Shown piece by piece: positions 1 through 18,457 of a stretch of 64,000 bases of DNA; the first letter of the stretch is position 1; every line of letters begins with the position of its first letter. The DNA comes from an uncultured Holophagales bacterium (lineage in GTDB: Bacteria; Acidobacteriota; Thermoanaerobaculia; Multivoradales; UBA5704): NCBI GenBank assembly GCA_963842525.1, contig CAWJGT010000009.1:832001-896000 (forward strand), given 5' to 3'. Made by a program: the position numbers and the translations under genes. Under the pieces are notes generated by a model, which saw nothing but the letters and a program-made list of their open reading frames with translations, had not been told where the DNA came from and did no database searches.

Positions 1-104
1 TCCGGGTCGAGGCTCTGAAGAAGGATGGAGCCGTTCAACTCCTGGAAGCCATGAAGCTCGATCCGCCTTCCACCAGACCCGGAAGCTCGAAATATCCCTG
101 GTAG
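1..104 (+). CDS. 3' end of an unidentified gene entering from the left edge
   Basis: Open frame 3-104 (RVEALKKDGAVQLLEAMKLDPPSTRPGSSKYPW*) ending TAG just before the RBS of the next gene. Confidence 0.5.
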   Translation, partial: RVEALKKDGAVQLLEAMKLDPPSTRPGSSKYPW

Positions 105-126
105 GCCCGACTCAAGGAGATTCAAG

Positions 127-1665
127 ATGAACAGGATTACCCGGCTGATCTGTGCAAGGGTCTACTGCTTCGGCCTCTTTGCCAGCATTCCTACCCTTCA
201 TCGTCTGATGGGCCTGCCATTTCGGGGATTCGACCGGGATCCGGGAATCGATCGCCGGCTCGCGCTCTTCCACACGATCCAATCTCTGCTGCTGTCCTTG
301 ATGTTCCTGATCCCTGCCACGCTGATCTATTTCTTCGCTCCGGCTACATCCCGAGCCGCCGCGATCGTCCTGTTCCTCCTCTGCTTCCTGAAGATCGCCG
401 TCCTCAATTTTTGGATTGCCCGCCGCTTTTTCCAGAAGCCGGCGAGCGCAGCGAGGTTCAAGCTGCCTTTGCTCGCGCGCCTGGCGGGATACTTCAGCGA
501 AAGACTACATCCCCTGTCTGTCTCCGATGGAATCGAGAGCCCTGGGGAGGCAGTCTACTTCCGCGGTTCGCGCCCTTTTGTCGGGTTCGGTTCAGAGATC
601 AATGCCTGGACCCTCGCCATCGATACGACAAGCCGGTCGCATGTAGAGTCCGCTGCCCTGGACTCGCCGCATCAGGCCTCCGATTTGGAGATCGAAGACC
701 TCTACCGCGCGATCGAGAAGAAGGTCGAGACCGTCGAGGTCGATGGAGTCACCACTCGTCGCATCTTCTTCATGGACGGCGACATTCCGGACGAGGAGCG
801 GTACCTTCGGGGAGGCAGGTACGGGCGGCCATCTCCCTACCTGCCGGAAAACCTCCTGAAGAACCTGGACAAGCCTGGAGAGCGAGGGCGCCAATACCTG
901 GTGCTCTCCGTACTCAACTCCGCCCGCGACCTTATGGTGAGTCAGTTCATCCGTTTCTCCCGCTCCGGTAAATTCATCTTCTGCGAGTTTGCATCGCACG
1001 TGATCCCACCTGGCAAGTCGAAGTTCTATACCTTCGACGTCCTCTTCCAGTATCACCCGGCGCTCTATGCCCTGATGGGACCACTCGTCTTATTTGCGAT
1101 CGGCCTCCTCGCGACCCTTGTCGCTCCTTTCACCGAAAGCTGGTTCTGGCTTGGCCCGGGCGTAGGCCAGAAGTACCTGGAAATGCTGAGTGTAGAAGGA
1201 TATGTCGAGTATGTGTTTGAGCAGATGCTGGGCGGATGGTTCGCTTATCGGATAACGGGCTTTTCTATCTTCCTGCTGACTGCCTTCGTCCTTTGGAGAG
1301 GAGTGCTCTGGTTGAGCAATGTCGTCGGGGTTTTCCTTCGGCTCAGGCACAACTTTGGGATCGACGTCTCCTGCCGGGAGCGCTGGGCTAGCGGTACCCG
1401 GCTTGCCTACTTTGACTTACAGGAGACGGTTCGGGCGCTGAAGATCCAGGAGAGGATCATCACGGGAGGCCTGATCGATTGCCTAGAGGGGCACGGGATC
1501 GATACGTCGGACCTAAAGCAGAGCATCACGGCGTTCATCAATCAGGGCGTGATCAATTCAGGGGAGATTCGCGGCAATGTATCGAACAAGATCGCCTCCA
1601 TCGTCTTCAGGCGGGATCGGAAGCGCAGGGCGCGCCGCGGGCTTCACCCCTTGATGGCTCCATAG
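127..1665 (+). CDS. Multi-pass membrane protein with C-terminal N/G/I-rich motif
   Basis: 512-aa ORF, AAGGAG RBS, several hydrophobic segments; C-terminus DCLEGHGIDTSDLKQSITAFINQGVINSGEIRGNVS. Confidence 0.75.
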   Translation: MNRITRLICARVYCFGLFASIPTLHRLMGLPFRGFDRDPGIDRRLALFHTIQSLLLSLMFLIPATLIYFFAPATSRAAAIVLFLLCFLKIAVLNFWIARRFFQKPASAARFKLPLLARLAGYFSERLHPLSVSDGIESPGEAVYFRGSRPFVGFGSEINAWTLAIDTTSRSHVESAALDSPHQASDLEIEDLYRAIEKKVETVEVDGVTTRRIFFMDGDIPDEERYLRGGRYGRPSPYLPENLLKNLDKPGERGRQYLVLSVLNSARDLMVSQFIRFSRSGKFIFCEFASHVIPPGKSKFYTFDVLFQYHPALYALMGPLVLFAIGLLATLVAPFTESWFWLGPGVGQKYLEMLSVEGYVEYVFEQMLGGWFAYRITGFSIFLLTAFVLWRGVLWLSNVVGVFLRLRHNFGIDVSCRERWASGTRLAYFDLQETVRALKIQERIITGGLIDCLEGHGIDTSDLKQSITAFINQGVINSGEIRGNVSNKIASIVFRRDRKRRARRGLHPLMAP

Positions 1666-1701
1666 CCGCTGACGCCTTGTTCATGAAGACGGAGGCCGGC
1701 C

Positions 1702-2148
1702 GTGACGATCAATACAGGGATCCTCAACTCCGGGAAGATCGGAGGTAACGCGAGTGTAAGCAACCTGGCAGGACACTTTGGCAATGACGTTCATGTGACG
1801 TCCACCGCCTCTGTGGTGGACATCCAAGGGCTGATAGAGCGGGTCCGTGTGCAGATCCAGGGGAAACTCGGTTTCCCCGGTCGGGATGCGGAGATCCGAC
1901 AAAAACTGGACCAGTTACTTGGCGAATTAGAAAAGCTAAGGGAACGCTACCCTGCGGAAACCAGGCGGGTCGTGAGCGCGCTCGAGTTGGTGATCCAGGA
2001 GCTGGGCACAGAGAAGCCAAACCAGGACTTCCTGGCATCTTCTTGGGAGCTTACCAAGCAGGCCTTGGGTAATATGGTCCAGTTGGAACCGGCCATTGCG
2101 GTCCTCGGAGAGAAGTTCGCTGAGAGCGTTTCGCAAACCCTGGCCTGA
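1702..2148 (+). CDS. Small protein: N-terminal N/G-rich motif plus helical bundle
   Basis: 148 aa, GTG start after GGAGG; N-terminus TINTGILNSGKIGGNASVSN followed by amphipathic helices. Confidence 0.75.
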   Translation: MTINTGILNSGKIGGNASVSNLAGHFGNDVHVTSTASVVDIQGLIERVRVQIQGKLGFPGRDAEIRQKLDQLLGELEKLRERYPAETRRVVSALELVIQELGTEKPNQDFLASSWELTKQALGNMVQLEPAIAVLGEKFAESVSQTLA

Positions 2149-2286
2149 GGAACCGTATGCGGTAATTCTGCACGTACGGGTCTGTGAGGCCTGGGTGGGC
2201 AGACTGAGGCCGAGGGTATTCGAAGAGCCCGAGGCGGAACCTGTGCGACGGATTATGGACGCCAAAAACAGAGTAAAGGAGAGATC

Positions 2287-2766
2287 ATGAGAGCGCAAGC
2301 GATCACAAGGATGCTTTTTGGGAGTGCAATGCTATTCTTGTTTACTGCACCTGCCTATTCAGCGCCTGTATTCTATTCGTGGGGCGGCGAGAAAATAATC
2401 AAGATAATGGACTTTCCCGACAGTTCTGACCTTCAAAGGTTGGACGGAAACTATGTAGATGCAGGGTATCGATATCAACAGGTGACCATCTTCTTTATTC
2501 CTGTCTGGAATTATAATGAGAAATGGTGTGGATATATTGGTAATGACAACGAATATCTCGACCTTGACAGACAAAGCTTGTCAGAATTGGCAGAGGCGGC
2601 AGGTTTAAGCTTGCCTGAAAGCCCTTCGTTGCCCTTTTGGGATTCCATTGGGGGAAAACTCTTGCTTGGAGTTATTTTATTAATGTATTTTGGCTACAAA
2701 GGGAGTGGCGCTGAGAAGAAAGGAGAAGAGATAGGCCAACCACAGGGAGGCAGCATGAAAGCCTAA
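2287..2766 (+). CDS. Hypothetical exported/membrane-anchored protein, low GC
   Basis: 159 aa, AAGGAG RBS, signal peptide (..APAYSA), C-terminal TM helix. Confidence 0.75.
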   Translation: MRAQAITRMLFGSAMLFLFTAPAYSAPVFYSWGGEKIIKIMDFPDSSDLQRLDGNYVDAGYRYQQVTIFFIPVWNYNEKWCGYIGNDNEYLDLDRQSLSELAEAAGLSLPESPSLPFWDSIGGKLLLGVILLMYFGYKGSGAEKKGEEIGQPQGGSMKA

Positions 2767-2775
2767 GCCCCAGGG

Positions 2776-3433
2776 GGAGTTTCCCCAGCTCTGCCGGGGT
2801 GGCAGTAGAAGTTTTACATTTCAGGGAGTGTCCATCGCGGAAACTTCCCTCGTGAGCTGCCAAGCACACGAGAGGAGAGGAAACCACGATGGACAAGTTT
2901 GACAGTTTGAACCACACGACGTGGGAGTGCAAATAACACATCGTTCATCCCAAGTGCCGCCGGAAGGTGCTGTACGGCCAGTCGCGGTCGGATTTTGGGG
3001 AGGTGTTTCGCAAACTGGCAGCTCAGAAGGAGAGCCGGATAGAGGAAGGACACTTGATGCCCGATCACGTCCATATGCTGGTGTCGATCCGACGAAGTAC
3101 TCGGTGCCGCAGGTCGTGGGGTTCATCAAGGGCAAGAGCGCCATCCATCTGGCGAGGGTGTATGGGGAGCGCAAGCGCAACTTTGTTGGGCAGCGCTTCT
3201 GGGCGCGGGGATACTTTGTCTCGACAGTCGTTCGGGATGAGGCTGCGATTCGGGAGCACATCAAGAAGCAGGAAAAAGAGAACGAACGATCGCACCAGCT
3301 CAGTCTCTGGCGATGAGTCGCCACCGGAACGGTGTCGCAAACCCCGAGGGGTCGCATTAGCGACCTTCCAGCCGCTTTGAGCGGCTCACAGATTTAAAGC
3401 CCGGCTCTGCCGGCTCTGCCGGGGATACTTACT
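2776..3433 (+). mobile_element. IS200/IS605-family element, inactivated
   Basis: Subterminal hairpins CCCCAGCTCTGCCGGGG (left) and CCGGCTCTGCCGGGGGATACTTACT (right) around a tnpA pseudogene. Confidence 0.8.
2889..3316 (+). pseudogene. tnpA: IS200-type Y1 transposase pseudogene
   Basis: MDKFDSLNHTTWECK* then frameshifted pieces with HUH motif MPDHVHML and FWARGYFVSTV. Confidence 0.85.
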
Positions 3434-3450
3434 ACCCAAAGGAGGGACCA

Positions 3451-3843
3451 ATGAACCCAATAGTCCTCGGAATCGTGATGTTCAGCTGGTACGTGTTCCT
3501 AGTTGTTGCCGGCATTCGCCGTGACAAGAGCATGAAAGGTGACCCGAAAGAGGTAATGGCAAGCAAAATGCGTGGGTTCTTGCTCGTCTGCTTTTTGGCA
3601 GCGATCGTTCTCGTAGTTGGCATGGTTTTTAAAGTGGCTTTCGCTTTCCCTCTAATGGCCATTGTGGTCGGCTCCTATTCAACATGGGCAGGGGTAGCCC
3701 ATCTCAGAAACCCGGACAACTTGATTGGCGCGATTCCCGGTCTGGGAGAAAAGACATTTAGTGGCGTTTTTGCCCGCGTGTTCGGGGCATTTGCGCTAGG
3801 TGTCGCCTATCTTATCCTATTACATCCATTTGTGCCGGAGTGA
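3451..3843 (+). CDS. Small 4-TM hypothetical membrane protein
   Basis: 130 aa, GGAGG RBS, four hydrophobic segments. Confidence 0.7.
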   Translation: MNPIVLGIVMFSWYVFLVVAGIRRDKSMKGDPKEVMASKMRGFLLVCFLAAIVLVVGMVFKVAFAFPLMAIVVGSYSTWAGVAHLRNPDNLIGAIPGLGEKTFSGVFARVFGAFALGVAYLILLHPFVPE

Positions 3844-3990
3844 TCGCAGGAAGCGTATTAGGCAAGAGAAAGGCGTATCTGACTTTGGAGGCACCGCCAG
3901 GCTGAGGTTCGTTGCTTGCAACGAGAAAATGCAGGTCGCGGAGTCCATCCGCTGCGGGAGGCCCTATCCGGCTGGCACTTCTGGACCGGC

Positions 3991-4564
3991 ATCCGGTACT
4001 ACCGCCGTCCCCTCAATCTCCACCAACGCCCGGTCTTCCAGCAGCGCCGCGACGACCAGCAGAGACATCGGCGGATAGTGGCGGCCGATTACCTCGCGGT
4101 AGATGCGGCCGATGTCGCGGCGGGTGGCGAGGTAGGCGGGCTTGTCGGTGATGTACCAGGTCAGGCGGACGAGGTGCTCCGGTCCGGCTCCGGCCTCCTT
4201 GAGGACGGCTACGATGTTTTCCAGAGCCTGACGGACCTGCTCGGCGAGGTCGTCGTCTCGAACTGGCAGGTGGCGGGATTCCAGCCCACTTGGCCGGCCA
4301 CGAAGACCTGACGACCCTGGACGGCCATGCCGTTCGCATAGCCCACCGGGGCTGCCCAGCCAGGAGGCTGGAGCTTCACGCTTCGCGCTCCCTCAGGCGG
4401 AAGCGCTGGAGCTTGCCGGTCAGGGTGCGGGGGAGGGCCTCGACGAATTCGATCTGGCGCGGGTACTTGTAGGGAGCGATCTGGCTCTTGACATGGGTCT
4501 GCAGCTCCTTGACCAGCTCGGGGCCGCCCTCCGGGCCGCCCTCGTTGCCGGGACGGAGGACGAC
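3991..4564 (-). pseudogene. Diverged duplicate of the RidA gene plus the 3' end of the CoA ligase (copy of ~7444-8006)
   Basis: Near-identical DNA and translation ([28 protein letters not shown]); 1-bp deletion near 4255 and a 12-bp local duplication near 4520. Confidence 0.9.
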
Positions 4565-4658
4565 TTTCCTTACCCTCGGTCCCAGACGACGCCCCTGCAG
4601 GCCCTTCTCGCCGATCAGAAGATCAGATTTCGACGGTTTTAGGTGAGCGTTAACAGGC

Positions 4659-4780
4659 GGTGACCCTGGTGATCCTGTCGCTGGTGTCGCTGTTGGGCCG
4701 CGACCGGCAGGCGATCGCGATCGGGCGCACGGCCTACGCCGGGCGGCGTCCTGTTCTGTCCTGTTCGGCTGGCACCTCTG
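4659..4780 (+). repeat. Duplicate of the MHYT gene 3' end and its downstream motif (copy of ~38869-39006)
   Basis: [25 protein letters not shown] vs [25 protein letters not shown], both followed by TGTTCGGCTGGCAC. Confidence 0.85.
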
Positions 4781-4796
4781 CCTGGGGAGGTGCCAG
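4769..4796. repeat. REP-like hairpin; the CGGCTGGCACYT motif also occurs at 3969, 38992 and the IS110 empty site
   Basis: Perfect 10-bp stem CTGGCACCTC/GAGGTGCCAG; related GTGCCAGATCTTYTGCGG at 4790 and 27668. Confidence 0.65.
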
Positions 4797-5196
4797 ATCT
4801 TTTGCGGTTGCCCCCATCGGAAGGACAAGAAAGCCCTGGCACCCACCGCGGAATACGTGAATCGATACCCGTCATCCGGGATCTCATTCAGGCATCCAAG
4901 GAACTGGGACAACATGCGTATGGCGTCCCTGGTTGTCTTCGACCGTCCGAGGTTTCAGAATTTTTCCGAAGCCCTCCAGAATCGTCCGAAGGCGCCTCGA
5001 GACTTCCCCTCCCGACGCTTCTCCACTGCATCGAAAGACGGGATAAGAACCTGAAACCCCGTCAACTGGGCCGCGCCTGTCCGAAGCGGATAAACAAGTG
5101 TCTCCACTTCAGTGTCACAAGGAGAAGATCTCATGCGGTAGACGTCAGGTATGCAGCACCTCCCTGCCTGCTCAATGCGAAAAAGGAGTCTGAACC

Positions 5197-6642
5197 ATGA
5201 AAACCCTCAGTCACCGCACCCTTTCCAGCGTCCTGGCGCTGGCTATCGGCGTGGGTATCTTGATGCTGGCGTGCGCTGACCAGGTCAAGGCCATGCCGGG
5301 GGACAAGACCGGCGGGAGTACCCAGGTGCTCGCCGTGGTCAACGGCGAGTCCGTTACCGATGCTGATGTAAGGGGGAACGCCGCCGCCCAGCTTACACAG
5401 CTTGAGCGCGATTACGAGCAGAAGAAGCACCAACTTCTCCAGAGCCAGTTGGAGCAGATGATCGAGGATCGTCTGCTGGAGGTCGAGGCCGCTGCCCTCG
5501 GCGTGACCAAAGAGCGGATCCTCGCCGACTTGAAGCCGGCGGTGGTGACCGACGCCGCTGTCGACGCATTCTACGAAGAGAACAAGGCGCAGATTCCGCA
5601 GCCCAAAGACCAGGTTCTTCCGCAGATCAAGAAGTATCTGGAGCAGCGCGGGCAGCTCGAAGCACGCAAGAAGTTTTTTGCCGACTTGGGCAACAAGCAT
5701 AAAGTCGAGATAAAACTGGAACCTATGCGCGTCGAGGTCGCCGCCGCGGGTCCAGCCAAGGGTCCGGCGACCGCGCCGGTGACGATCGTCGAGTTCTCGG
5801 ATTTCCAGTGCCCGTTCTGCTCGCGCCTCGTCCCGACCCTGGATCAGGTAAAGACGAAGTATGGCGACAAGGTGCGGGTGGTCTATCGTCAGTTTCCCTT
5901 GGCTATGCATGCGCAGGCGCGGAAGGCCGCGGAGGCTTCGCTCTGCGCCAACGACCAAGGCAAGTTTTGGGAAATGCACGACGCCATGTTCAAGAGCCAG
6001 CAGCAGTTGGCCATCGAGAACCTGAAGACAATGGCCATCGAGTTGAGCTTGAATGACGAGAAGTTCAACTTCTGCCTCGACTCCGGAAAGCACGCCTCGA
6101 AGGTAGCTGAGGATCTGCAGGCGGGCACGGCCGCAGGGGTCAGTGGCACGCCGGCGCTCTTCATCAATGGCCGCTTCATCAACGGTGTGGTGCCGCTCGA
6201 GCAGATCACCGAGGTGGTCGACGACGAGCTGCGGCGCAAGGACCTCCCCTCTGTCGGAGTCGCCAGCCAAACCATCGTGTCACCAGCTGGAGCAGATACG
6301 ATAAAAGCGATCGGTGACGAAGTTCAGTGGACTGAGTATCACGACATCGAATCTGATGATTGTATATCCATTATTTTCGTAGGCGCGGTTTGCCATCACG
6401 TGACTTACAAGTTCGAATTCCGGGGTAGGATCGCCAGCATCAATCACCAGCACAAAGAATACAATGTCTCTCTGACTAGTCGGAAAGTCATTCCGCAAGA
6501 ATTGGTTTCTCCGATGTATTGGAGCTACAAGGATCGAGCTCAACAATGGGCCGGCCATGAATCTGACCGTTCTAGACATTTGCTTGCAAGATTGGCAAAG
6601 CTATTCAATATCGCTCTGATTGCACCTGTCTCCACCAGCTAA
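5197..6642 (+). CDS. DsbA/thioredoxin-family protein with SurA-like N-terminus and a low-GC C-terminal extension
   Basis: Signal peptide, FSDFQCPFC active site, GVSGTPALFING; composition shifts after DDELRRK (~6240). Confidence 0.85.
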   Translation: MKTLSHRTLSSVLALAIGVGILMLACADQVKAMPGDKTGGSTQVLAVVNGESVTDADVRGNAAAQLTQLERDYEQKKHQLLQSQLEQMIEDRLLEVEAAALGVTKERILADLKPAVVTDAAVDAFYEENKAQIPQPKDQVLPQIKKYLEQRGQLEARKKFFADLGNKHKVEIKLEPMRVEVAAAGPAKGPATAPVTIVEFSDFQCPFCSRLVPTLDQVKTKYGDKVRVVYRQFPLAMHAQARKAAEASLCANDQGKFWEMHDAMFKSQQQLAIENLKTMAIELSLNDEKFNFCLDSGKHASKVAEDLQAGTAAGVSGTPALFINGRFINGVVPLEQITEVVDDELRRKDLPSVGVASQTIVSPAGADTIKAIGDEVQWTEYHDIESDDCISIIFVGAVCHHVTYKFEFRGRIASINHQHKEYNVSLTSRKVIPQELVSPMYWSYKDRAQQWAGHESDRSRHLLARLAKLFNIALIAPVSTS

Positions 6643-6663
6643 TGTGCTGCGCCTAAGCGAGGC

Positions 6664-7189
6664 ATGCTGCCTCTTCAAATGTTACCGCTGAACCGATTTG
6701 GGCGAGCTATACTTGCGGCATTCGCTTTAGCTTCATTGCTACCATGTTCACTGCGTTCTCAAACGGAAGAGGTCAAGATAAAGGTCAATGCAGCTCTAAA
6801 GGCTGCGGACGAAGGGCGGCCCGAGGAGGCTTACCGAATTTGGATGGAACTCCTGGCGTTGGGGCGGCCAATCGGTCTTGGTGAAGAAGGTCTCTCTTTT
6901 GTGCGCGCGCACGTATACCATGCCTCGGAACGCAGATCAGTATCTTGATGCTGTGAACGAGCATGTAATTTCGGAGGGAGATTACGTCACTAATAAAGGC
7001 GTTCTGCAGGCCTGGATTGGCTGGGTAGTCAGTCGATCGGGAGACGCCATCGAGGTGAAGATCACCTATATAAATAAGGATCTCGCTGCGGGTTTAATGA
7101 AGGGTGCTCGAGCTAGATTTTCTGTATCTGAATGCAAGGAGCTAGGTGCCATTAGCGCAGATGCCGCGCTCAAAGGATGGAAGGAGTAA
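6664..7189 (+). pseudogene. Exported hypothetical protein split by a frameshift near 6935
   Basis: Overlapping ORFs 6664-6948 (signal peptide) and 6878-7189, low GC. Confidence 0.5.
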
Positions 7190-7441
7190 TCACGCAAGAA
7201 TTTGGCAACTAGAGATGGTGTACTGGCGCACCTCGCGGGGAGCCTGGGCTGGCTCGGGCTTCTTCGGATCGGTCCTGCTGTGGCTGGCCAGCAGGGAAGC
7301 CGTCAGCAGGATGAGGGGGAGGAGGCATGGAGGGCTCCTGGGATTTGGGCCAGGACGGGGCTGATGAGCGAAATGTCAAAGGCCGGCGGATCTATGAGGT
7401 AGTCCAGAGAGGTCAAAGGATACCACCGCAGGCAGTATCTA

Positions 7442-7834
7442 TTAATCCGGCACCACCGCCGTAGCCTCGATCTCCACCAGCGCCCGGTCTTCCAGCAGCG
7501 CCGCGACGACCAGCAGAGACATCGGCGGATAGTGGCGGCCGATCACTTCCCGGTAGATGCGGCCGATGTCGCGGCGGGTGGCAAGGTAGGCGGACTTGTC
7601 GGTGATGTACCAGGTCAGGCGGACGAGGTGCTCCGATCCGGCCCCGGCTTCCTTGAGGACGGCGACGATGTTTTCCAGGGCCTGACGGACCTGCGCGACG
7701 AGGTCGTCGGTCTCGAACTGGCAGGTGGCGGGATTCCAGCCTACCTGGCCGGCTACGAAGACCTGACGACCCTGGACGGCCATGCCGTTCGCATAGCCCA
7801 CCGGGGCTGCCCAGCCAGGCGGCTGGAGCGTCAC
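7442..7834 (-). CDS. RidA/YjgF family protein
   Basis: GTG start overlapping the ligase stop; [33 protein letters not shown]. Confidence 0.92.
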   Translation of the reverse strand: MTLQPPGWAAPVGYANGMAVQGRQVFVAGQVGWNPATCQFETDDLVAQVRQALENIVAVLKEAGAGSEHLVRLTWYITDKSAYLATRRDIGRIYREVIGRHYPPMSLLVVAALLEDRALVEIEATAVVPD

Positions 7835-9468
7835 GCTTCGCGCTCCCTCAGGCGGAAGCGCTGGAGCTTGCCGGTCAGGGTGCGGGGAAGGCTCTCCACG
7901 AGCTCGATCTGGCGCGGGTACTTGTAGGGAGCGATCTGGCTCTTGACATAGGTCTGCAGCTCCTTGACCAGCTCGGGGCTGCCCTCGTTGCCGGGACGGA
8001 GCACGATGAAGGCCTTGACCACTTGGCCGCGCTCGTCGTCGGGCACCCCGATGACCCCGCACTCCAGCACCTTGGGATGCTCCAGGAGCACGTTCTCCAC
8101 CTCGACGCCCGAGATGTTGATCCCCGCGGAGATGATCATGTCGTCCGTGCGCGCCTGGTACCAGAAGTAGCCGTCGTCATCCATCAGGAAGGAGTCGCCG
8201 GTCAGGTTCCAGCCGTTCTGCACGTAGCCGCGTTGCCGCTCGGGATCGTCCAGGTAGCGGCAGCCCGTGGGACCCTTGACCGCCAGCTTGCCGACAGTTC
8301 CGGGAGGCAGCGCGCGGCCGTCCTCGTCCACGATCTGTGCCTGGTAGCCGGGCACCACCCGGCCCGTTGCGCCGGGACGGATACCGTCCCCGGACTCGCT
8401 GATGAACATGTGCAGCATCTCGGTCGAGCCGATGCCGTCGATGATCCCGAGGCCGGTCGCCTCCTTCCAGGACTCCCAGGTGGGACGCGGCAGGTGCTCG
8501 CCCGCCGATACGCAGGCCCGCAGGCTCGAGATGTCGTGCTTCGGGAGCATCGGGAGCATCGCCCGGTACGCGGTCGGCGCCGTGAACACGACCGTGGCCC
8601 GGAAGTCCTGGATGCCCTGGATGAGCTGCGGCGGCGCGGCCTGCTCCAGCAGCACGGCCGAGGCGCCGATCCGCATCGGAAACAGGATCAGGCCCCCGAG
8701 CCCGTAGGTGAAGGCGAAGGGCGGCGAGCCGGCGAAGATGTCGTCGCGGTCGGGCTTGAGCACGTAGGGCGGGAAGCAGTCGCAGGCCGCGATCACGTCG
8801 CGGTGGAAGTGGACCGTCCCTTTTGCGTTGCCCGTGGTGCCCGAGGTGAAGGCAATGAGGGCGATGTCGTCCGCCGCGGTGTCGCAGTTGTCGAAGGTGG
8901 GGGGCTTGTCCCGCATCAGGTCTTCGAGCGACCCCGGCTTGCCGGAGCTCAAGTGGACGACCCTCGCCCCTTCCCGCGGCCGGCCGTCGCCGGTTTTTGC
9001 CATGGCCTCCTCGCACTCGCCGCAGATGCGCGCGTCGGTCAGGGCGAGGCGGATGGCTGCCTTGTCGGCCATGTAGACCAGCTCCCGCGAGCGCAGCAGC
9101 GGCATGGTGCAGACCACGATGCCGCCGGCCTTCAGGATCGCGAACCAGCAGGCCGCCGTCATCGGGTTGTTGTAGCCGCGCAGGAGCACGCGGTTGCCCG
9201 GGACGAGGCCGAGGTCTTCCACCAGGACGCGAGCGATGCGGTTCGCGGTCTCCAGCAGCTCGCGGTAGGTCCAGCGTCCGCCGGAGAAGTGGAAAACGGT
9301 CCGGTCGCCGTCGCCCGCGGCGATCCGCGCGTCGAGGAGCTCGGCCGCGCAGTTCATCCGGTCCGGGTAGGCGAGCTCCGGGATGCCGCTGTAGTCCATC
9401 TCGGGCCATTGCTCGGGCGGGGGCAGGAGATCGCGGCAGAAGGTATCCACATGAGCTGATTCAGGCAT
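7831..9468 (-). CDS. Benzoate/2-aminobenzoate-CoA ligase (AMP-binding)
   Basis: [10 protein letters not shown] start; [33 protein letters not shown]. Confidence 0.92.
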
Positions 9469-10675
9469 CTGGCGTCTCCTTGAGGAGCTGACCGGCGATG
9501 ACCAGCTTCTGGACCTCGCTGGTCCCTTCGTAGATCCGCAGGGCACGGACTTCGCGGTACAGGCGCTCGACCGGCGCGCCCGCGAGCACGCCGCGCCCGC
9601 CGAGGAGCTGCACGGCGTCGTCGATGACGCGCTGGGCTGTCTCGGTGGAGTAGAGCTTGGCCATGGCCGCCTCGCGCGTGACCCGCGGCGCGCCCGCGTC
9701 CCGCGTCCAGGCCGCGCGATAGACCAGGAGCGCGCTGGCGTCCACACCGACGGCCATGTCCGCCAGCCGCGCCTGGGTGAGCTGCAGGTCGGCGAGAGGC
9801 TTGCCGAAAACCTTTCTTTTGCGCGCGTGGCTCACCGCTTCGTCCAGGGCGCGGCGGGCGAAGCCGAGCGCCGCGGCCCCTACGGTGGAGCGGAACACGT
9901 CCAGCGTGCCGAGCGCGATCCGCAGCCCGCGGCCGGGCTCGCCGATCAGGGCCGAGGCGGGCACACGGCAGCGCTCGAAGCGGATCGTGCCCAGCGGGTG
10001 CGGCGCCATCAGGTCGAGCCGCGCGGTCACGGTCAAGCCGGGGTTGTCCGCTTCCACTACGAAGGCTCCGAAACCTTTTTCTCCCAGCTCGGGCATGCGG
10101 CAGAAGGCCACGTAGACGTCCGCGAGCCCCGCGTTGGAGATCCAGGTCTTCTCGCCATCGATCACATATCCCGCCCCGTCGCGGTGGGCGGTCGTGGTCA
10201 TGGCGCCGACGTCGGAGCCGGCCTCGGCCTCGGACAGCGCGAACGCCGGGATGGCTTCTCCGGAGGCGACCTTCGGCAGCCACTGCCGGCGCTGCTCCTC
10301 CGAGCCGAAGAGGGAGATGGGACCGCTGCCCAGGCCCTGGAGAGCGAAGACGAAGTCGGCGAGGCCGGAGGTCCGGGCCAGGGTCTCGCGGATCAGGCAG
10401 AGCGAGCGGACGTCGAGCCTGTTCCCGACTGCATACCGCAGCCAGCCGCCGGATGCGAGACGGCGGACGAGCTCGCGGCAGGTGCCGTCGAGGGACCCCT
10501 CACCCCCCTGGCCCCCCTCTCCCATCCCCTCCGCCTCCTTTTCTCCTCCCGGGAGGGGGGGCGATGGGAGAGGGAGGGGTCCGATCTCGCGCTCCGTCCA
10601 CTCCGCCAGCTCGCGGGCGAGAACGCGGTGCGCCTCATCGAAGAACGGCCAGGAAAGAAAGGTTTCGTCTGCCAT
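9461..10675 (-). CDS. Acyl-CoA dehydrogenase
   Basis: [12 protein letters not shown] start; [31 protein letters not shown]. Confidence 0.93.
10496..10579. repeat. REP-like palindrome inserted in frame in the acyl-CoA dehydrogenase
   Basis: CCCCTCACCCCCCTGGCCCCCCTCTCCCATC...GATGGGAGAGGG, same family as 11560-11703; encodes [28 protein letters not shown]. Confidence 0.8.
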
Positions 10676-11508
10676 CAATCGCCCTGGAAGACCGGCTTTT
10701 CCCTGGCAACGAACGCCCGGTAGGCGCGGGCGAAATCCTCGGTCTGCATGCAGATCGCCTGGGCCTGGGCCTCGGCCTCGATGGCCTCGTCGACCCCCAT
10801 CGACCACTCCTGGTGGAGGGCCTTCTTGGTCATGGAATGGGCGAAGCTGGGGCCCTTGGCGAGAGAGGCGGCCAGGGTCTGGGCTTCCGCGAGGAGCTGC
10901 TCCGGCTCCACCAGCCGGTTGTAGAACCCCCAACGCTCCGCCTCGGGTCCCTCCATGAACCGCCCGGTATAGAGCAGCTCGCTGGCCCGGCCCTGTCCGA
11001 CGATGCGTGGCAGCATGGCGCAGGCTCCCATGTCCGCGCCGGAGAGGCCGACCTTGACGAAGAGGAAAGCGACCCGGCTGCGCGCCGTGCCAAGCCGCAT
11101 GTCCGAGGCCATGGCAAGGATTGCGCCCGCGCCCACGCACATGCCGTCGATGGCCGTGATGATCGGCTGCGGGCAGGCGCGCATCGTGCGGACCAGCTCG
11201 CCGGTCAGCCGCGTGAAGGCGAGGAGCTTGTCCATCCGTTTCTCCTCGCGCCATTGGACCAGCGGGCCGATGATGTCGTGGACGTCGCCTCCCGAGCAGA
11301 AGTCTTCACCTGCGCCGGTCAGCACCACGGCCCGCACCTCGTCCACACGGCGAAGACGGTCGAACGTGTCGGACAGCTCGCGGTAGGACTCGAAGGTGAG
11401 CGGGTTCTTGCGTTCCGGACGCGACAGCGTGATGGTCGCGACCCGCCCCTCGACGCTCCAGGCGAAGCTCGTCGGGCGGATGTCTTCTACAGGGATGCGG
11501 TCTTGCAA
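10675..11508 (-). CDS. Enoyl-CoA hydratase/isomerase family
   Basis: TTG start after GGAGG; [26 protein letters not shown]. Confidence 0.92.
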
Positions 11509-11559
11509 AGGTGGTCCTCCTGTCTCAGAGGATATCTGGAAATTCCTGCGCGAGCCCTG

Positions 11560-11703
11560 GCCCCTCACCCCCGGCCCCTCTCCCATCCGCACTCCCTTCC
11601 CCCGGGAGAGGGGAGAAATGCATGATCAGGAAGCTCCTGGGTGGGGGCTCCCCTCGCCCGGGCGGGTGTGAGTGCGGATGGGAGAGGGGCCGGGGGTGAG
11701 GGC
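11560..11703. repeat. Intergenic REP-like inverted repeat pair
   Basis: CCCTCACCCCCGGCCCCTCTCCCATCCGCACTC and its exact reverse complement ending at ~11702. Confidence 0.85.
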
Positions 11704-11737
11704 CCTGCCGGCCGCCTCAACCTTTCCAAACACCCTC

Positions 11738-14035
<2,298 letters not shown>

Positions 14036-14163
14036 GGCGCGGAGTCTAGCAAAGGGGGGCTCATCCTGGTAGGCCGGCTTGTCGCCTTTATGTCAACACA
14101 AGTGGCGTGGTTGACTGCCATCTCCACGCGGGCTAACCTGTAGGCGGCCTGAGGACTCTAAAG

Positions 14164-14654
14164 ATGACGAAGCGCGCCGCAGCCGAATTCATCCCACTGG
14201 AAGCCGACTCGCAGGGGGTTCTGCGAATCTCTGGGACGCATGTGACTCTGGAGTCGGTGGTGGCGGTGTATAGGACCGGCAGAACGGCCGAGCAGATTGC
14301 CGAGCTGTACTCGTCTCTCCAGCTAGCGGATATCTATGCCGTGCTGACCTATTACCTGCGCCACCAAGAGGAGGTCGAGACATACATCCGGCGGCATCAT
14401 CGCCAAGTCGATCCCGCCTTTATGATTGATCAGGTAGCGAGCGAGCGATCAGAGCCTCCTAGCCCGTAAATACGGGGGTCAGGAGCTTTCTGCTAATGAT
14501 CAGGAGCGGCTTGAAGCGCTCACCGCAAGACTCAAGGATGCTTTACCGCCTGTCTCCTTTGACGACCTCAAGGTCCTCCTGGAAATGACGGAAGAAGTGG
14601 AGAGCATCCGCGAGCGCGCCCGCGAGCGTCGGCAGCGTCTCGGGTTGAGATAGG
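14164..14654 (+). CDS. DUF433-domain protein, apparently frameshifted near 14450
   Basis: GVLRISGTHVTLESVV..TAEQIAELYSSLQLADIYAVLTYY; another frame continues SLLARKYGG..RQRLGLR* to 14654. Confidence 0.65.
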
Positions 14655-14659
14655 CGGAA

Positions 14660-15304
14660 ATGGACGATCTTATCGAGTCGCTGCTCTTTCCGAGACAGCG
14701 CCAGGAGCGGGGTCACGATCCAGGCCCTTTCAGCGACCATCGCCTCTACAAACCACATCTCCAGAGGGGATTCCGAAGGAAGTGCGTTTATTGCCGCGTC
14801 TCGGATGGGCTGAAAGGTTATGAGGGTTTCGGCGTCGATCACTACCTACCCAAATCCAAGTTCCCCGCTCTCACAGCAGAATGGTCAAACCTCTTGTATG
14901 CCTGTAACGTCTGCAACACCTGGAAGGGTGAGTCCGTATCCACTCCTGAACGATTCCTTCCCAACCCTTGTGTGCATACAATGGCGGATCACCTCCAATA
15001 CCAAGGAGCCGATATCGAGACCTACACGCCGCATGGAGAATGGCTGGCGGAGTTGCTCCATCTCGCGGAGCGACGAGAGCTACGAGAGCTTATCTTCGCC
15101 ACCCTCGGCCAGTTCCTCAGGACTCGCAACGAGCTCCTTCGGGATCTGACTACCTATGAAGCCCAGCTCGATGAGGATCCGGACGCAAAGGAGCGGAGCG
15201 CAATTCAGGTCGCAATTCAGGAAAGTACGGAAGAACTGGCGCGGGTGAGCCGATATATCGAGCTCATCACCGGAGAGCCGGTTGCTGCGGAACGGGGCGG
15301 CTGA
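14660..15304 (+). CDS. HNH endonuclease
   Basis: CVYC..VDHYLPKS..WSNLLYACNVCNTWK. Confidence 0.88.
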   Translation: MDDLIESLLFPRQRQERGHDPGPFSDHRLYKPHLQRGFRRKCVYCRVSDGLKGYEGFGVDHYLPKSKFPALTAEWSNLLYACNVCNTWKGESVSTPERFLPNPCVHTMADHLQYQGADIETYTPHGEWLAELLHLAERRELRELIFATLGQFLRTRNELLRDLTTYEAQLDEDPDAKERSAIQVAIQESTEELARVSRYIELITGEPVAAERGG

Positions 15305-15539
15305 CGGGGCCAGATCCAGCGGCGGACACGCGCCGGAGAATCGTCTGGCGCCTCCACCGCCTGGCCTGCCTACCGCAGTGGGGGTATAATAAGGGCGCGA
15401 TGAAACGGGAAAAAGAACAGATCCTCGCTATCCTGCCTACACGGCCGGCTTCACCTTTCCCCAGGCGATCGGCTGACGTTCTGAACGGTGCTGCGCCAGA
15501 AGCGGCTGCGGCGTTGTCGCTCGAGGAAATTGGGGGCCC

Positions 15540-15845
15540 ATCCAGAGTCCGTGGAACCACGCCAGGAAATTTGGACCGCGTCCAGAGCTCTGTGGAACCG
15601 ATTCAGGGTCACGCTGCATCGATCCAGGAAATTTGGAAGGCGTACAGAAATTTTGGAAGCGATCCCAAAAATTTGGAACGGGTCCAGAATTTTTTGGAAC
15701 CGCTTCCGCGTTTCGCTGTATCGATCCAGAAAATTTGGAACGCGTACAGAAATTTTGGAAGCGATCTCAAAGATTTGGAACCGGTCCAGAAAATTTGGAA
15801 CGCGTCCAGAACCCCGGGAATCGATCCCGCGTCATCCGGATCTCG
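15540..15845. repeat. Tandem array of 20-21-bp units with a ~102-bp higher-order repeat
   Basis: About 13 units of type CCAGAAAATTTGGAACGCGT with a TCCA..TGGA dyad; AT-rich relative to flanks. Confidence 0.85.
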
Positions 15846-15887
15846 TTCAGGCACCCTCCGAACGATGAAATGTAACGCCTCTTCGGA

Positions 15888-17249
15888 TCACGGAGTTCCC
15901 GATCCAGAGAAGAGGAGCGGCTCGGCATCTTCCGCAACTCCGGGGAAGCGCGCGTCGGGATCGTGGCGTGCCCTCAGGAGGAAAGCGGCAACCTGGCGGG
16001 CCAGACCGGCGTTGGCCGCCTCGGTGAGCGCCGCGTTCTGGAAGACCGCCAAGGCGGCGAGCGCCTCGCGGTGCACCTCCTGGGAGAGGAAGATCGGGAC
16101 CATCCCACGGACAAGGTCCTTGACCTCGGCGGTCTGCCCTTCCTCGTCATAGAGGGCTGCCAGCTCCAGCGCCGCGAGGGAGGCATCATAAGCCATCCCC
16201 CTGTCCAGAAACGCGCGCCAGACCTCATCGAGCATCCGGACCGCCTCCCTCCGCTCGCCGGTGCCAGCCGCGACCCGCCCCTCCGTCCATCTCAACCGGG
16301 CCAGATCCAGGGCATTTTCCAGCTCCCGACAGAGCCCCTGGACGCCGGGAAGAAGCTCCCTGGCTTCTTCGAACCGGCCAAGCGTTGTCAGATTCCAGAC
16401 GAGGTTGTGCCGGCAACACAGGAGGAGGCGAGGATCACGGCCTGGGTCTATGAGGTGGACAGCCTCCTTCAACAGCTCGACCGCCGCTTCCGGCTGCTCG
16501 GCGTCCGCGAAGGCGAATGCCTTCTTGACCATGGCCCGCCCTGCCAGATGTGGATCTCGCTGCTCCGGTCTCCCTTCCTTATAGATATGGATCACGCGGT
16601 CCAGCAGGCCCAGAGCCTCGGGAAACCGCCGCTGAGCGATTCGTAGCGAGGCTTGCAGGTCCCAGAGGACCGGCCGATAGCCGAGGGCATCCTCTTCCCG
16701 ATCAGCCCAGAATCGGTCCGAAACGGCGTCAGCCTCTTCGGCGCTCCGGAGCTCGCCAAGCACCCGGCGGGCGTTAGCGAGGTAGATCCAGGCGAGAGAC
16801 CGGACCTCGTCGAGCCAATCTTCCTCGAAGGGTTTGCCCGCTTCGAGGCGATCAGCAACAGCCACCGCCAGCTCCGCGATCTCGACTGCCAGGACGACCT
16901 CGCTAGCTGCGATGGCTTCGCTCTTCTGAGCGAGAAGCTCGCACAAGCCCAGGCTTCGGAACCGGGGCTCGTGATCGATCCGGACGAGTTGCTCGTTCAA
17001 AGAGAGGCCGGAGAGTTCCTCCCAGAGGGTCGGCGCCTCAGCTCTCGATTGCGCGAGTTCCACATCGAGCCGCCCGAAGACGGCCGGGAGGTGACCCGCC
17101 CGATGGAGGTCCAGGATGTAGCCGCCCACCTCCGAGCACTGCGGGCAGACCTCCAGTCGGTGCAACAGGGACGCACAGCGATCCGCCTCGGTCTCCTCGC
17201 CGGCCAGCCATTGCTCCAGAGCCTCCGGGCTCAGGTGCCGCTCGTTCAC
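15888..17249 (-). CDS. TPR-repeat protein with N-terminal zinc-binding (anti-sigma-like) motif
   Basis: GTG start after AAGGAG; HLSPEALEQW..HRLEVCPQC then TPR-like helices (LANARRVLGELRSAE, RFPEALGLLDR, LGRFEEARELL). Confidence 0.85.
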   Translation of the reverse strand: MNERHLSPEALEQWLAGEETEADRCASLLHRLEVCPQCSEVGGYILDLHRAGHLPAVFGRLDVELAQSRAEAPTLWEELSGLSLNEQLVRIDHEPRFRSLGLCELLAQKSEAIAASEVVLAVEIAELAVAVADRLEAGKPFEEDWLDEVRSLAWIYLANARRVLGELRSAEEADAVSDRFWADREEDALGYRPVLWDLQASLRIAQRRFPEALGLLDRVIHIYKEGRPEQRDPHLAGRAMVKKAFAFADAEQPEAAVELLKEAVHLIDPGRDPRLLLCCRHNLVWNLTTLGRFEEARELLPGVQGLCRELENALDLARLRWTEGRVAAGTGERREAVRMLDEVWRAFLDRGMAYDASLAALELAALYDEEGQTAEVKDLVRGMVPIFLSQEVHREALAALAVFQNAALTEAANAGLARQVAAFLLRARHDPDARFPGVAEDAEPLLFSGSGTP

Positions 17250-17332
17250 GCGCTTCTCCTTTCGGACCAATGCTTACGACACTTCGTATCCTACACCGGA
17301 GTTTGCGCGATACGTCTAGGCATGCCGGCATT

Positions 17333-17605
17333 CTAGCCATGCGGGTCCAACTGGCCGCCGTTGTCGCCCGTCACGCCGCTCGGGTCCAACTGCCCGCCGT
17401 TGTCGCCCGTGATGCCATCGGGATCGAGCTGGCCGCCGTTCTGGCTCCAGACGGCGGTGAGCAGGTTACACACCTGCTCGAAGAAGCCGGGGTCCGCGGT
17501 CCTGCCGGAATCCTGGAAGAGGGGGAGAGCTTGGGCGAGCCCAGGTGAGAGAAGAGCTGCCAGGGCGAGAGCTGCGATCGTACGGCCCGTCTTGGGAGGC
17601 AACAT
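17333..17605 (-). CDS. Secreted small peptide with three NGGQLDPxG repeats
   Basis: 90 aa, AGGAG RBS, signal peptide ending LAQA, 39-bp DNA repeats at the C-terminus. Confidence 0.8.
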   Translation of the reverse strand: MLPPKTGRTIAALALAALLSPGLAQALPLFQDSGRTADPGFFEQVCNLLTAVWSQNGGQLDPDGITGDNGGQLDPSGVTGDNGGQLDPHG

Positions 17606-17808
17606 GGCAAGGCTCCTAGGAAGCGGCTGCGCCTCACCGCCGCCACGGCCGCGAGCGAGCCGCCCTCAAGAACGTGAGTGCCCCGGCAGCGCGACAACGA
17701 TCCTCGAAGCAAAGTCATGGAGGGGGCAGTTTTCCGGCGGGGGCGTGGTGAGAGTCCCTGGGAAAGCGGGCGGGGCGCCCGCCCTCCCAAGGAACAAGCA
17801 TATTGATG

Positions 17809-17874
17809 AATGGCCATGACATCAGGACCGTCCAGGAGCTCCTGGGGCACCAGAGCGTCAAGACGACGATGTAG
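17809..17874 (+). pseudogene. C-terminal remnant of a tyrosine recombinase (integron-integrase-like)
   Basis: Translates [21 protein letters not shown]. Confidence 0.7.
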
Positions 17875-18334
17875 GCCCGCAAGCGTGCTGCGGCTTGCGC
17901 GCTTGTTGCAGCGATACGCCATCGTGGTTGAGAAGGGGGGGAGCATTGGCATCATTGATCGAGGTCTCCCCGACGCCATCTCTCGCCTCATTCAGGATGG
18001 AGGCATGACGCTGGCCGACGCAATGGTGTTCGTCAGCGTCGTGATTCCGACTGATTTGCCAGCGTTAAACATTCGCCTCGACATTCAGCCGAAGCTCGCG
18101 TTCGATCGCGTCTTAAGTCGTGGCAAGCAGTTCTCGGCGAGTGAAGCACGCGGAATGTCCTACCTTCAAAATCGTCACGCGGCCCTCAGTGATGTATTTG
18201 GAGTCCTCGATACGCTCGGCCGAGATGTCGCAATTCTCGATGCTCGGCAACCACTCAAAGAGCTACATGCGAGCGCTTTTTCACGTATAGATGCTTGGCT
18301 AAAACGATCCAATTGGGTACCAGCCGAATCTTAA
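17875..18334 (+). pseudogene. 5'-truncated thymidylate-kinase-like protein
   Basis: IIDRG and RLDIQPKLAFDRVLSRG resemble the dTMP kinase C-terminal half; no P-loop present. Confidence 0.45.
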
Positions 18335-18457
18335 TCGCACCCAGATGCCTGAATGCCGCGGCGAGATGCGGGAGGGTCGGCCAGCTTGCATTCGCTCTCT
18401 CGGAGCGCTTGGGCGAGCTGCGGGGGCCTCCAGATCTCCAAGAATCCGCTTGGCGGA

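Follow-up and report, generated by a model that had tools for sequence, protein, structure and literature searches.

The DNA analyzed here is a stretch of 64,000 nucleotides (the window) from an uncultured Holophagales bacterium (GenBank assembly GCA_963842525.1, contig CAWJGT010000009.1, positions 832,001 to 896,000). Close to its left edge lie two collinear genes, here called A and B, encoding an inner-membrane protein and a small cytoplasmic helical protein and separated by 36 nucleotides (Table 1). The C-terminal region of protein A and the N-terminus of protein B carry the same short motif, rich in glycine, asparagine, and hydrophobic residues. The two motifs probably mediate a direct and sequence-specific coupling of A and B. 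Our favored explanation goes further and is held more tentatively, its chances falling a little short of even: the pair would be a self-contained two-gene signaling module, coupled via cross-beta templating assembly and similar to the bacterial amyloid signaling sequences (BASS), without the NOD-like receptor (NLR) or the Bell domain.

Both open reading frames (ORFs) were found as described in the original prediction, which had been made from the sequence of the window, and so were the motifs at their facing ends, comprising residues 471 to 487 of A (INQGVINSGEIRGNVSN; nucleotides 1537 to 1587) and residues 3 to 21 of B (INTGILNSGKIGGNASVSN; nucleotides 1708 to 1764). With one more residue, positions 470 to 487 of A read FINQGVINSGEIRGNVSN. 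The statement that protein A ends with the motif was slightly off, since a basic tail of 25 residues comes after it. The ATG of gene A has an AGGAG 7 nucleotides upstream, as read from the sequence, and the N-terminus assigned to B coincides with those of 20 relatives aligned with it, which supports the GTG as its start. BLASTP of A against B gave 10 identities over 16 positions (E = 4e-4) and nothing else significant; since this match is confined to the motif, the two proteins are unrelated outside it, as had been claimed. The best ungapped BLOSUM62 score between A and B was 55, a value reached by none of 1,000 shuffles of B (mean, 29.4; maximum, 44). A six-frame regular-expression scan located the motif at these two places only within the 64-kb window. 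Genes A and B are in the same reading frame, with two stop codons between them.

Table 1. Features of genes A and B, in window coordinates
Feature	Position (nt)	Strand	Residues	Description
Gene A	127..1665	+		512-aa inner-membrane protein of unnamed family; ORF, ATG start
A membrane helices 1 and 2	253..432	+	43-102	Hydropathy peaks; AlphaFold2 helices 43-70 and 76-102
A conserved alpha/beta domain	547..1005	+	141-293	AlphaFold2 strands and helices; between membrane helices 2 and 3
A membrane helices 3 and 4	1057..1335	+	311-403	Hydropathy and AlphaFold2
A-side motif	1531..1587	+	469-487	AFINQGVINSGEIRGNVSN
A basic C-terminal tail	1588..1662	+	488-512	25 residues, KIASIVFRRDRKRRARRGLHPLMAP; basic tail in 16/16 family members
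Gene B ribosome-binding site	1691..1695	+		GGAGG, 6 nt before the GTG; read from sequence
Gene B	1702..2148	+		148-aa cytoplasmic protein, N-terminal motif plus five-helix bundle; ORF, GTG start
B-side motif	1702..1764	+	1-21	MTINTGILNSGKIGGNASVSN; start of protein B
B five-helix bundle	1813..2142	+	38-147	AlphaFold2 helices 38-55, 63-79, 84-101, 108-128, and 131-147

The same arrangement was found in other genomes. A pattern scan of genome contigs yielded 116 pattern matches, among which two loci were confirmed, in a Desulfobacterales metagenome-assembled genome (L001; A of 535 aa, B of 150 aa, 17-nucleotide overlap) and in Massilia sp. CF038 (L002; A of 545 aa, B of 121 aa, 4-nucleotide overlap). 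Two further loci came from a tblastn search of a plasmid collection that includes some large replicons, one in Streptomyces sp. BHT-5-2 (L003; A homolog 24.5% identical to A, B of 126 aa, 31-nucleotide gap) and one in Nonomuraea gerenzanensis (L004; B of 119 aa, 4-nucleotide overlap). The A homolog of Nonomuraea (positions 2566 to 4461) has an N-terminal FHA domain (Pfam, E = 7e-14), and that of Streptomyces begins, by eye, with a cysteine-rich, zinc-ribbon-like region. A collinear B-type gene thus directly follows the A homolog in all five genomes (spacings of +36, -17, -4, +31, and -4 nucleotides), and the shared motif was conserved in each of the five gene pairs examined, so that linkage and conservation were both upheld. 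The flanking genes, including the upstream ones, differ in every locus, and therefore the conserved unit consists of the two genes alone. The claim that an operon extends beyond the left edge of the window finds no support, the upstream gene being a different one in all four other loci. In the window itself, an upstream ORF does overlap gene A: it runs in from the left edge (2 to 130, forward strand), its TGA overlaps the ATG of A (ATGA), and its 42 visible residues belong to no family and have no counterpart upstream of A elsewhere. A tblastn search of plasmids with the B protein of Massilia and with the proteins P0054 and P0038 gave no match, and the B protein of Nonomuraea matched its own record only.

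Three types of motif were distinguished, each of them common to both partners of a pair. Type 1 reads INQGVIN[ST]GxIRGN in A and NxGIINxGxIGG in B; the B N-termini compared were MTINTGILNSGKIGGN in the window, MPEVNKGIINTGTIGGN in the Desulfobacterales genome, and MNHNSGVINTGSVGGS in Massilia. Type 2, of Streptomyces, pairs NNGIIAGEGAKVESSSVASG in A with NNGITATGGSSVVGNAVASG in B (in the longer form, INNGIIAGEGAKVESSSVASG on the A side and RNNGITATGGSSVVGNAVASG on the B side). Type 3, of Nonomuraea, pairs GSNFGNAPGSNFGNAPGSSFRG with GTNYGNAPGSNFGHAPGSHFHG. In a matrix of all A tails against all B heads, cognate pairs scored 49 to 113 and pairs of the same type 45 to 113 overall, compared with 19 to 32 for pairs of different types. 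The co-variation of the two motifs in homologous pairs, proposed earlier as a test, was therefore seen across the three types. The likeness of the cognate motifs was matched by very few shuffled sequences (0 of 1,000 in the window, 1 in the Desulfobacterales genome, 1 in Massilia, and 0 in both Streptomyces and Nonomuraea). Moreover, a hidden Markov model (HMM) of the A-side motif (25 columns, 16 sequences) matched residues 3 to 19 of 22 B-type proteins, among 155 sequences of the B family, at E ≤ 0.1, with an E value of 8.5e-5 for the motif of the window B, and matched none of 155 shuffles at that threshold (best shuffle, E = 0.6). The model also matched two chimeric proteins, P0076 and P0064, and, as expected, left unmatched the B proteins whose motif is of type 2 or 3.

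These results bear on the idea that the likeness has no function and is either a chance resemblance of low-complexity sequence or what is left of a local duplication where the two genes meet. The motifs are indeed short and rich in glycine and asparagine, and in the window A and B share a frame. Such an origin is nevertheless extremely improbable in view of the shuffles in each of the five pairs, of the type-wise co-variation across phyla, of the HMM matches to B N-termini, and of the motif being the most conserved part of both the A family and the B subfamily. The two intervening stops in the window, and the different frames of the two genes in the Desulfobacterales, Massilia, and Nonomuraea loci, speak against it as well; the same two facts led us to reject a programmed read-through of A into B.

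Two of the proteins retrieved, both from metagenomes, join parts of A and B. P0076, a metagenomic fragment of 147 aa, is a one-frame join of the C-terminal region, motif, and basic tail of A to a B-type N-terminus, with motif copies starting at residues 42 and 84, about 40 residues apart. If genuine, it would provide Rosetta-stone-type support for a physical link between A and B. P0064 joins the first ~140 residues of A to a whole B protein and looks like a deletion product.

The A family has remained nameless. Protein A has four hydrophobic helices by hydropathy and in the AlphaFold2 (AF2) model (residues 43 to 70, 76 to 102, 311 to 342, and 371 to 403), which agrees with its description as a membrane protein, and the model (mean predicted local distance difference test [pLDDT], 76; predicted template-modeling score, 0.77) shows a helical region after the fourth of them. 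Judged from the basic residues that follow helices 2 and 4, a cytoplasmic position appears likely for the N-terminus as well as for the alpha/beta domain and the tail. A word-index search returned 16 proteins, including the one of the window, at E ≤ 0.01 and 35 to 90% identity to A. In the alignment of these 16 members, the alpha/beta domain has an invariant block (F145, G147, R149, P150, F151, G153, G155, E157, W161, D166, and T167) and further invariant residues (Q273, F274, R276, F277, E287, F288, A289, and S290). Residues I471, N472, Q473, G474, I476, N477, G479, I481, and G483 of the motif are invariant in 16/16, making it the most conserved stretch of the family. When the last 68 residues of A were used as a word-index query for the motif on other domains, the same family alone was recovered, P0019 being a fragment of it. 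Protein A matched no family in Pfam (E ≤ 1), NCBIfam, or PADLOC and no sequence in the PDB. Foldseek against the PDB gave no significant match for A, the best one (E = 0.057) showing a weak START/Bet v 1-like trend that serves as a lead only. An Atlas look-alike search retrieved clusters of membrane proteins of 520 to 537 aa, mostly from Actinomycetota (scores of 0.95 to 0.96).

Protein B had been described as helical, and structure prediction of the 148-aa product agrees, giving a five-helix bundle (mean pLDDT, 74.6). For the window protein no credible family was found in NCBIfam or PADLOC. Foldseek against the PDB found generic helical bundles only (best E, 0.45), among them four-helix ones such as the CC-R domain of the plant protein NRG1.1 (probability, 0.84; template-modeling score, 0.48; a lead only), and a PDB sequence search gave helical proteins only, driven by composition. 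The word-index search with B returned a single relative, P0002 (65% identity). An exhaustive HMMER search with a 4-sequence B profile then retrieved 510 proteins at E ≤ 1e-3, 34 of them at E ≤ 1e-10. The family counts that follow refer to the best 150 of these 510 matches, 66 of which are shorter than 200 aa and 84 longer. The type 1 motif or a close variant opens 20 of the 66 short proteins, and in an alignment that includes the B proteins of the window and of Massilia, N4, G6, N9, G11, and G14 are invariant in 21/21 B-type proteins. Glycine and asparagine together make up 21% of the first 35 residues of the short members versus 9% of the rest, and at least 25% in 26 of the 66. Many small DUF4404-like proteins (P0054, P0071, P0093, P0129, P0145, P0156, P0168, and others) have other starts rich in these two residues, such as IGxIGGDLSGNV or GGxVNIGGEQxF. 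If each of these starts matches the end of a neighboring gene product, the B family holds many more motif pairs. At the other end of the protein, the last 22 residues are hydrophobic across the family (mean Kyte-Doolittle value, 1.22; at least 1.0 in 115 of the 150).

In the 84 longer relatives, the B bundle is the C-terminal domain. A Pfam scan of 83 of them (the A/B chimera P0064 was left out) identified DUF4404 in 34 (E ≤ 1e-3), EAD7 in 11, COR-B in 3, Peptidase_C14 in 2, and EAD1 in 2, with single cases of pentapeptide repeats and of a Het-E N-terminal domain. In a closer look at 28 of the proteins listed, 23 of them among the longer ones, the EAD7 or caspase domain was N-terminal and DUF4404 C-terminal. 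The matches to DUF4404 lie mostly at 22 to 30 bits for a cutoff of 27, the B protein of Nonomuraea reaches 26.6 bits against DUF5955 (cutoff, 27.1), and the Atlas look-alike search with B returned DUF4404 and DUF5955 as leads, plus TCAD2 at 0.89. Judged from these similarities, the five-helix bundle of B appears to be a distant relative of DUF4404 (PF14357) and DUF5955 (PF19380). No paper on either family was found in the literature searched, and the two names therefore carry no function. A sub-threshold match to NCAB1, on a repetitive protein resembling the flagellar hook-length protein FliK, is probably composition driven. The short motif of B sits where the relatives hold EAD7 or a caspase, suggesting that it may act as a minimal adaptor, with the bundle as the output.

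In the signaling module that we favor, A and B would be coupled by a motif of 17 to 22 residues, present in two flexible segments, the C-terminal tail of A and the beginning of B. As in the fungal and bacterial systems HET-S/NWD2, Bell/NLR, and Bab/Agp, the two motifs would come into contact and assemble homotypically into a shared cross-beta structure, either a beta-arch or a solenoid-like one, by which one partner would transmit a state change or its clustering to its counterpart. Protein A could be a membrane-embedded sensor or platform, as the FHA domain or the cysteine-rich N-terminus of its actinobacterial relatives would fit. Clustered A tails would then nucleate the fold and convert the N-terminus of B, whose bundle would be released or re-targeted, and the conserved hydrophobic last helix of this bundle could engage the membrane. 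The signal might also travel in the reverse direction, with B triggering A as a membrane effector. It is from the company kept by the B bundle that we infer a direction of signaling and a possible role in defense or regulated cell death.

Both motifs lie in low-confidence and probably disordered ends of the AF2 models, next to well-folded domains: the pLDDT is below 50 for residues 1 to 34 of B and for the last 39 residues of A (474 to 512), which include most of the motif. Flexible peptides beside folded domains would also suit a competitive mimicry, in which the tail motif of A is an autoinhibitory peptide held in cis in a pocket, for example, of the strongly conserved alpha/beta domain, and the N-terminus of B competes for this pocket, switching A on or off. 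Co-evolution of the motif and the receptor pocket could give the same type-wise co-variation. We consider this mechanism improbable, because AF2 does not dock the low-confidence tail on the domain and because three unrelated motif chemistries, one of them an octapeptide repeat with prolines, would need remodeled pockets, yet the Streptomyces and Nonomuraea proteins keep the signature residues of the alpha/beta domain.

Several observations weigh against a cross-beta signaling module. In the AF2 models neither motif has beta structure, both being unstructured or weakly helical, and the pair comprises no NLR, Bell, TIR, or CHAT partner. PADLOC-DB 2.0 returned nothing for A and, for B, PDC-M14B alone (E = 0.038; 11.7 bits), which is not credible; tblastn of A against phages gave no match. 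The B protein of the window matches no Pfam family at E ≤ 1, hence neither DUF4404 nor DUF5955. The comparison comprises only five genomic pairs and three motif types, and the fusion seen in P0076, coming as it does from a metagenomic fragment, may have arisen through an error in sequencing. Prolines, in which BASS motifs are poor, are present in type 3. The neighborhoods are housekeeping or unrelated, with no prophage or defense-island context: the Massilia pair is flanked by genes for a two-component system, with a histidine kinase (Pfam) and a response regulator (by eye), and for a thioesterase; the Nonomuraea pair lies between genes resembling rpsL and rpoC, as judged by eye from the translations; the Desulfobacterales pair adjoins a SecDF-like gene; and the pair of the window adjoins a broken IS200-like gene. 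Finally, the type 1 motif of A is invariant across homologs that are only 35 to 45% identical overall, and no finer co-variation was seen inside type 1, where the window, the Desulfobacterales and Massilia loci, and P0076 score 45 to 55 with one another. Both findings would be expected of an amyloid and, equally, of any other binding peptide under conservation.

A fixed binding peptide is what a stable docking of the two proteins would involve. An ordinary small beta-zipper or strand-exchange interface would keep the bundle of B permanently tethered to the tail of A on the cytoplasmic side, making B a constitutive subunit of A or a regulator of it, and neither prion-like conversion nor a role in cell death would be involved. 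Such a fixed heterodimer accounts for the linkage, the co-variation, and the natural fusion as well as an amyloid does, and the invariance of the A-side motif is typical of it; the neighborhoods, which are not defense islands, and the lack of a credible PADLOC match agree with it. We still regard docking as rather unlikely. Homotypic short motifs rich in glycine and asparagine at disordered termini are a hallmark of cross-beta signaling, as far as the sources cited below describe it, and not of the usual docking peptides; the B bundle family accompanies EAD7 adaptors and caspases; and three quite different motifs serve the same pair, which is easier to understand if self-complementary stacking alone matters.

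Amyloid signaling in fungi and bacteria is described as relying on a motif of ~20 to 25 residues, rich in glycine, asparagine, and glutamine, that closes an effector (HeLo, Hell, Bell, TIR, CHAT, and others) and opens an NLR, the product of the neighboring gene; BASS pairs are collinear in 91% and overlapping in 42% of cases, share their motif families between partners, and have motifs depleted in proline (Dyrka et al., bioRxiv 10.1101/2020.01.06.895854). These motifs lie in disordered termini beside folded domains (bioRxiv 10.1101/2024.11.07.622273; bioRxiv 10.1101/2020.01.06.895854). Measured against these accounts, the A/B pair resembles the Bell/NLR pairs BASS1 to BASS10 of filamentous bacteria in having a C-terminal and then an N-terminal motif, collinear genes with small gaps or overlaps, a pattern of glycine and asparagine with hydrophobic residues, and motif types common to the partners. 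The same short motif indeed stands at the C-terminus and the N-terminus of adjacent collinear products in 5/5 loci, and its length and its richness in glycine, asparagine, isoleucine, and valine are visible in the A and B sequences, with prolines in type 3. The partners are different. The B proteins (119 to 150 aa) have no NB-ARC or NACHT match in Pfam or NCBIfam; A, a protein with four transmembrane helices and without Pfam, NCBIfam, or PADLOC family, is no Bell, TIR, CHAT, hydrolase, or cyclase, although Bell is set apart by architecture alone. The hosts also differ from the filamentous bacteria of BASS1 to BASS10, since the pair occurs in Massilia and Desulfobacterales besides actinomycetes. 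In the part of the BASS sequence sets compared (PMC8086366), the words INQGVIN, GVINSG, NSGEIRGN, NFGNAPG, GNAPGS, GSNFG, and NNGII did not occur, and IINTG, IGGNA, and NYGGTNY were found in single entries of sets C09, C02, and Ccya03, which appears to reflect a likeness of style and not membership.

That amyloid signaling does not need an NLR follows from Bab/Agp (BASS11) of Escherichia coli ECOR25, which is described as an abortive-infection pair without one; BASS11 is also found with EAD7 (bioRxiv 10.1101/2024.11.07.622273). The original prediction had proposed an NLR-independent pair of a membrane protein and a helical partner. Neither protein is an NLR, A is a membrane protein, and B is a helical bundle, as proposed; the B bundle family is fused elsewhere to EAD7 adaptors and caspases, which belong to conflict systems. 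Independence from NLRs had already been published for Bab/Agp and is not new. Going by that description, the two systems have in common two adjacent genes without an NLR, a motif of ~20 residues with which one product ends and its neighbor begins, a small helical bundle as one of the partners, and the company of EAD7, which goes with BASS11 there and with the B bundle family here. They differ in layout: Bab has its motif C-terminal and its hydrophobic helix N-terminal, while B is the mirror image, with the motif N-terminal and the helix C-terminal. Bab/Agp also differs in its context, A/B lying in no prophage or defense island, and in its domains, given that A and B showed no similarity to Bell or Babybell (in Pfam and, for B, in the PDB by Foldseek and sequence). 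As for the defense or cell-death role that had been thought possible, neither PADLOC, nor the phage tblastn, nor the neighborhoods lend it support.

In the fungal system HET-S/NWD2 of Podospora anserina, a sensor that bears one copy of the motif is believed to template an executioner, which has a helical domain for membrane targeting (bioRxiv 10.1101/2024.11.07.622273). The two tandem copies in P0076 recall the two pseudo-repeats of HET-s. The A/B pair differs from HET-S/NWD2 in its bacterial hosts and in that the large motif-bearing partner, A, is a membrane protein, and from both HET-S and Bell in the reversed order of motif and hydrophobic helix in B. The Pfam models of RHIM, HET-s, sigma, and PP did not match A or B at E ≤ 1. 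The effector-associated domains (EADs) of NTP-dependent conflict systems offer another parallel. They are described as small adaptors that act homotypically, each occurring on the products of two neighboring genes, and EAD7 is counted among those recruiting effectors (Kaur et al. 2020, eLife, PMC7159879). As in that description, one small homotypic module on the products of two adjacent genes would recruit one product to the other, and the relatives of the B bundle carry EAD7 or EAD1 where B has its short motif. EADs, in contrast, are folded and of ~60 residues or more, and the coupler of A and B is an unstructured motif of ~20 residues. No EAD was detected in A or B, and no vWA-MoxR, GTPase, or STAND gene adjoins the pair in the five loci.

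Literature searches for DUF4404, DUF5955, EAD7, and amyloid signaling or BASS, with most subscription journals outside their coverage, found no description of the A/B pair. Paired terminal motifs resembling those of amyloid signaling, including NLR-independent ones, are already known; new are the partner families, the membrane-anchored partner, the mirrored layout of the bundle protein, and the taxonomic range. Such paired motifs are the signature by which amyloid signaling was discovered in fungi and filamentous bacteria, and searches for them have so far been confined to Bell-type effectors paired with NLRs, with the TPR-PIN sensor of Bab/Agp as the one addition. The A/B pair presents that signature, together with co-variation, on two families without name or literature and in a different geometry. 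If the motifs template each other, the pair would provide a membrane-anchored entry point into amyloid signaling; the DUF4404/DUF5955 bundle, whose relatives number in the hundreds and in some cases form part of caspases or EAD7 adaptors, would gain a first function; and searches for motif pairs would best be run without fixed partner domains. If the motifs simply dock, they would still represent a compact and portable pair of peptides, co-evolving and able to hold a soluble protein at a membrane protein.

A broader proposal, which we consider unlikely, is that the pair represents a new branch of amyloid signaling with membrane-protein receptors. Clustered A proteins, with their four transmembrane helices, would have their C-terminal motifs close together, seed a cross-beta fold, and convert B, a "mirror-Bell" executioner; the DUF4404/DUF5955 bundle would be a widespread and hitherto unrecognized cell-death or membrane-targeting module, recruited by EAD7-type adaptors or by many short motifs rich in glycine and asparagine; and the branch would reach ordinary Proteobacteria. 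If true, amyloid signaling would extend well beyond NLRs and multicellular bacteria.

A scan of positions 1 to 3000 for promoters and terminators found no more sites than in shuffles. Directly after gene B, an ORF of 159 aa (2287 to 2766, forward strand) encodes a product that begins like a signal peptide and contains a hydrophobic segment close to its C-terminal end; Pfam, PADLOC, and NCBIfam gave no credible family for it, and it is not conserved beside the A and B genes of the four other genomes. Some 0.8 kb past the end of gene B, two reading frames share the sequence of an IS200-like Y1 transposase (2921 to 3380, forward strand), with positions 20 to 63 of the Pfam family Y1_Tnp in the frame of 2967 to 3380 and positions 60 to 121 in that of 2921 to 3316; it is a frameshifted remnant. 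An ORF of 179 aa on the reverse strand (4376 to 4915) matches the C-terminal domain of AMP-binding enzymes only and may be a gene fragment; a complete AMP-binding enzyme is encoded at 7831 to 9747, also on the reverse strand. An HNH endonuclease ORF is present at 14660 to 15304. In 2-kb steps over positions 1 to 20000, the G+C content ranges from 0.51 to 0.70, with 0.58 in the A/B region, 0.51 at 18 to 20 kb, and 0.65 to 0.71 in much of the rest; the left-hand portion of the window may be pieced together from acquired DNA.

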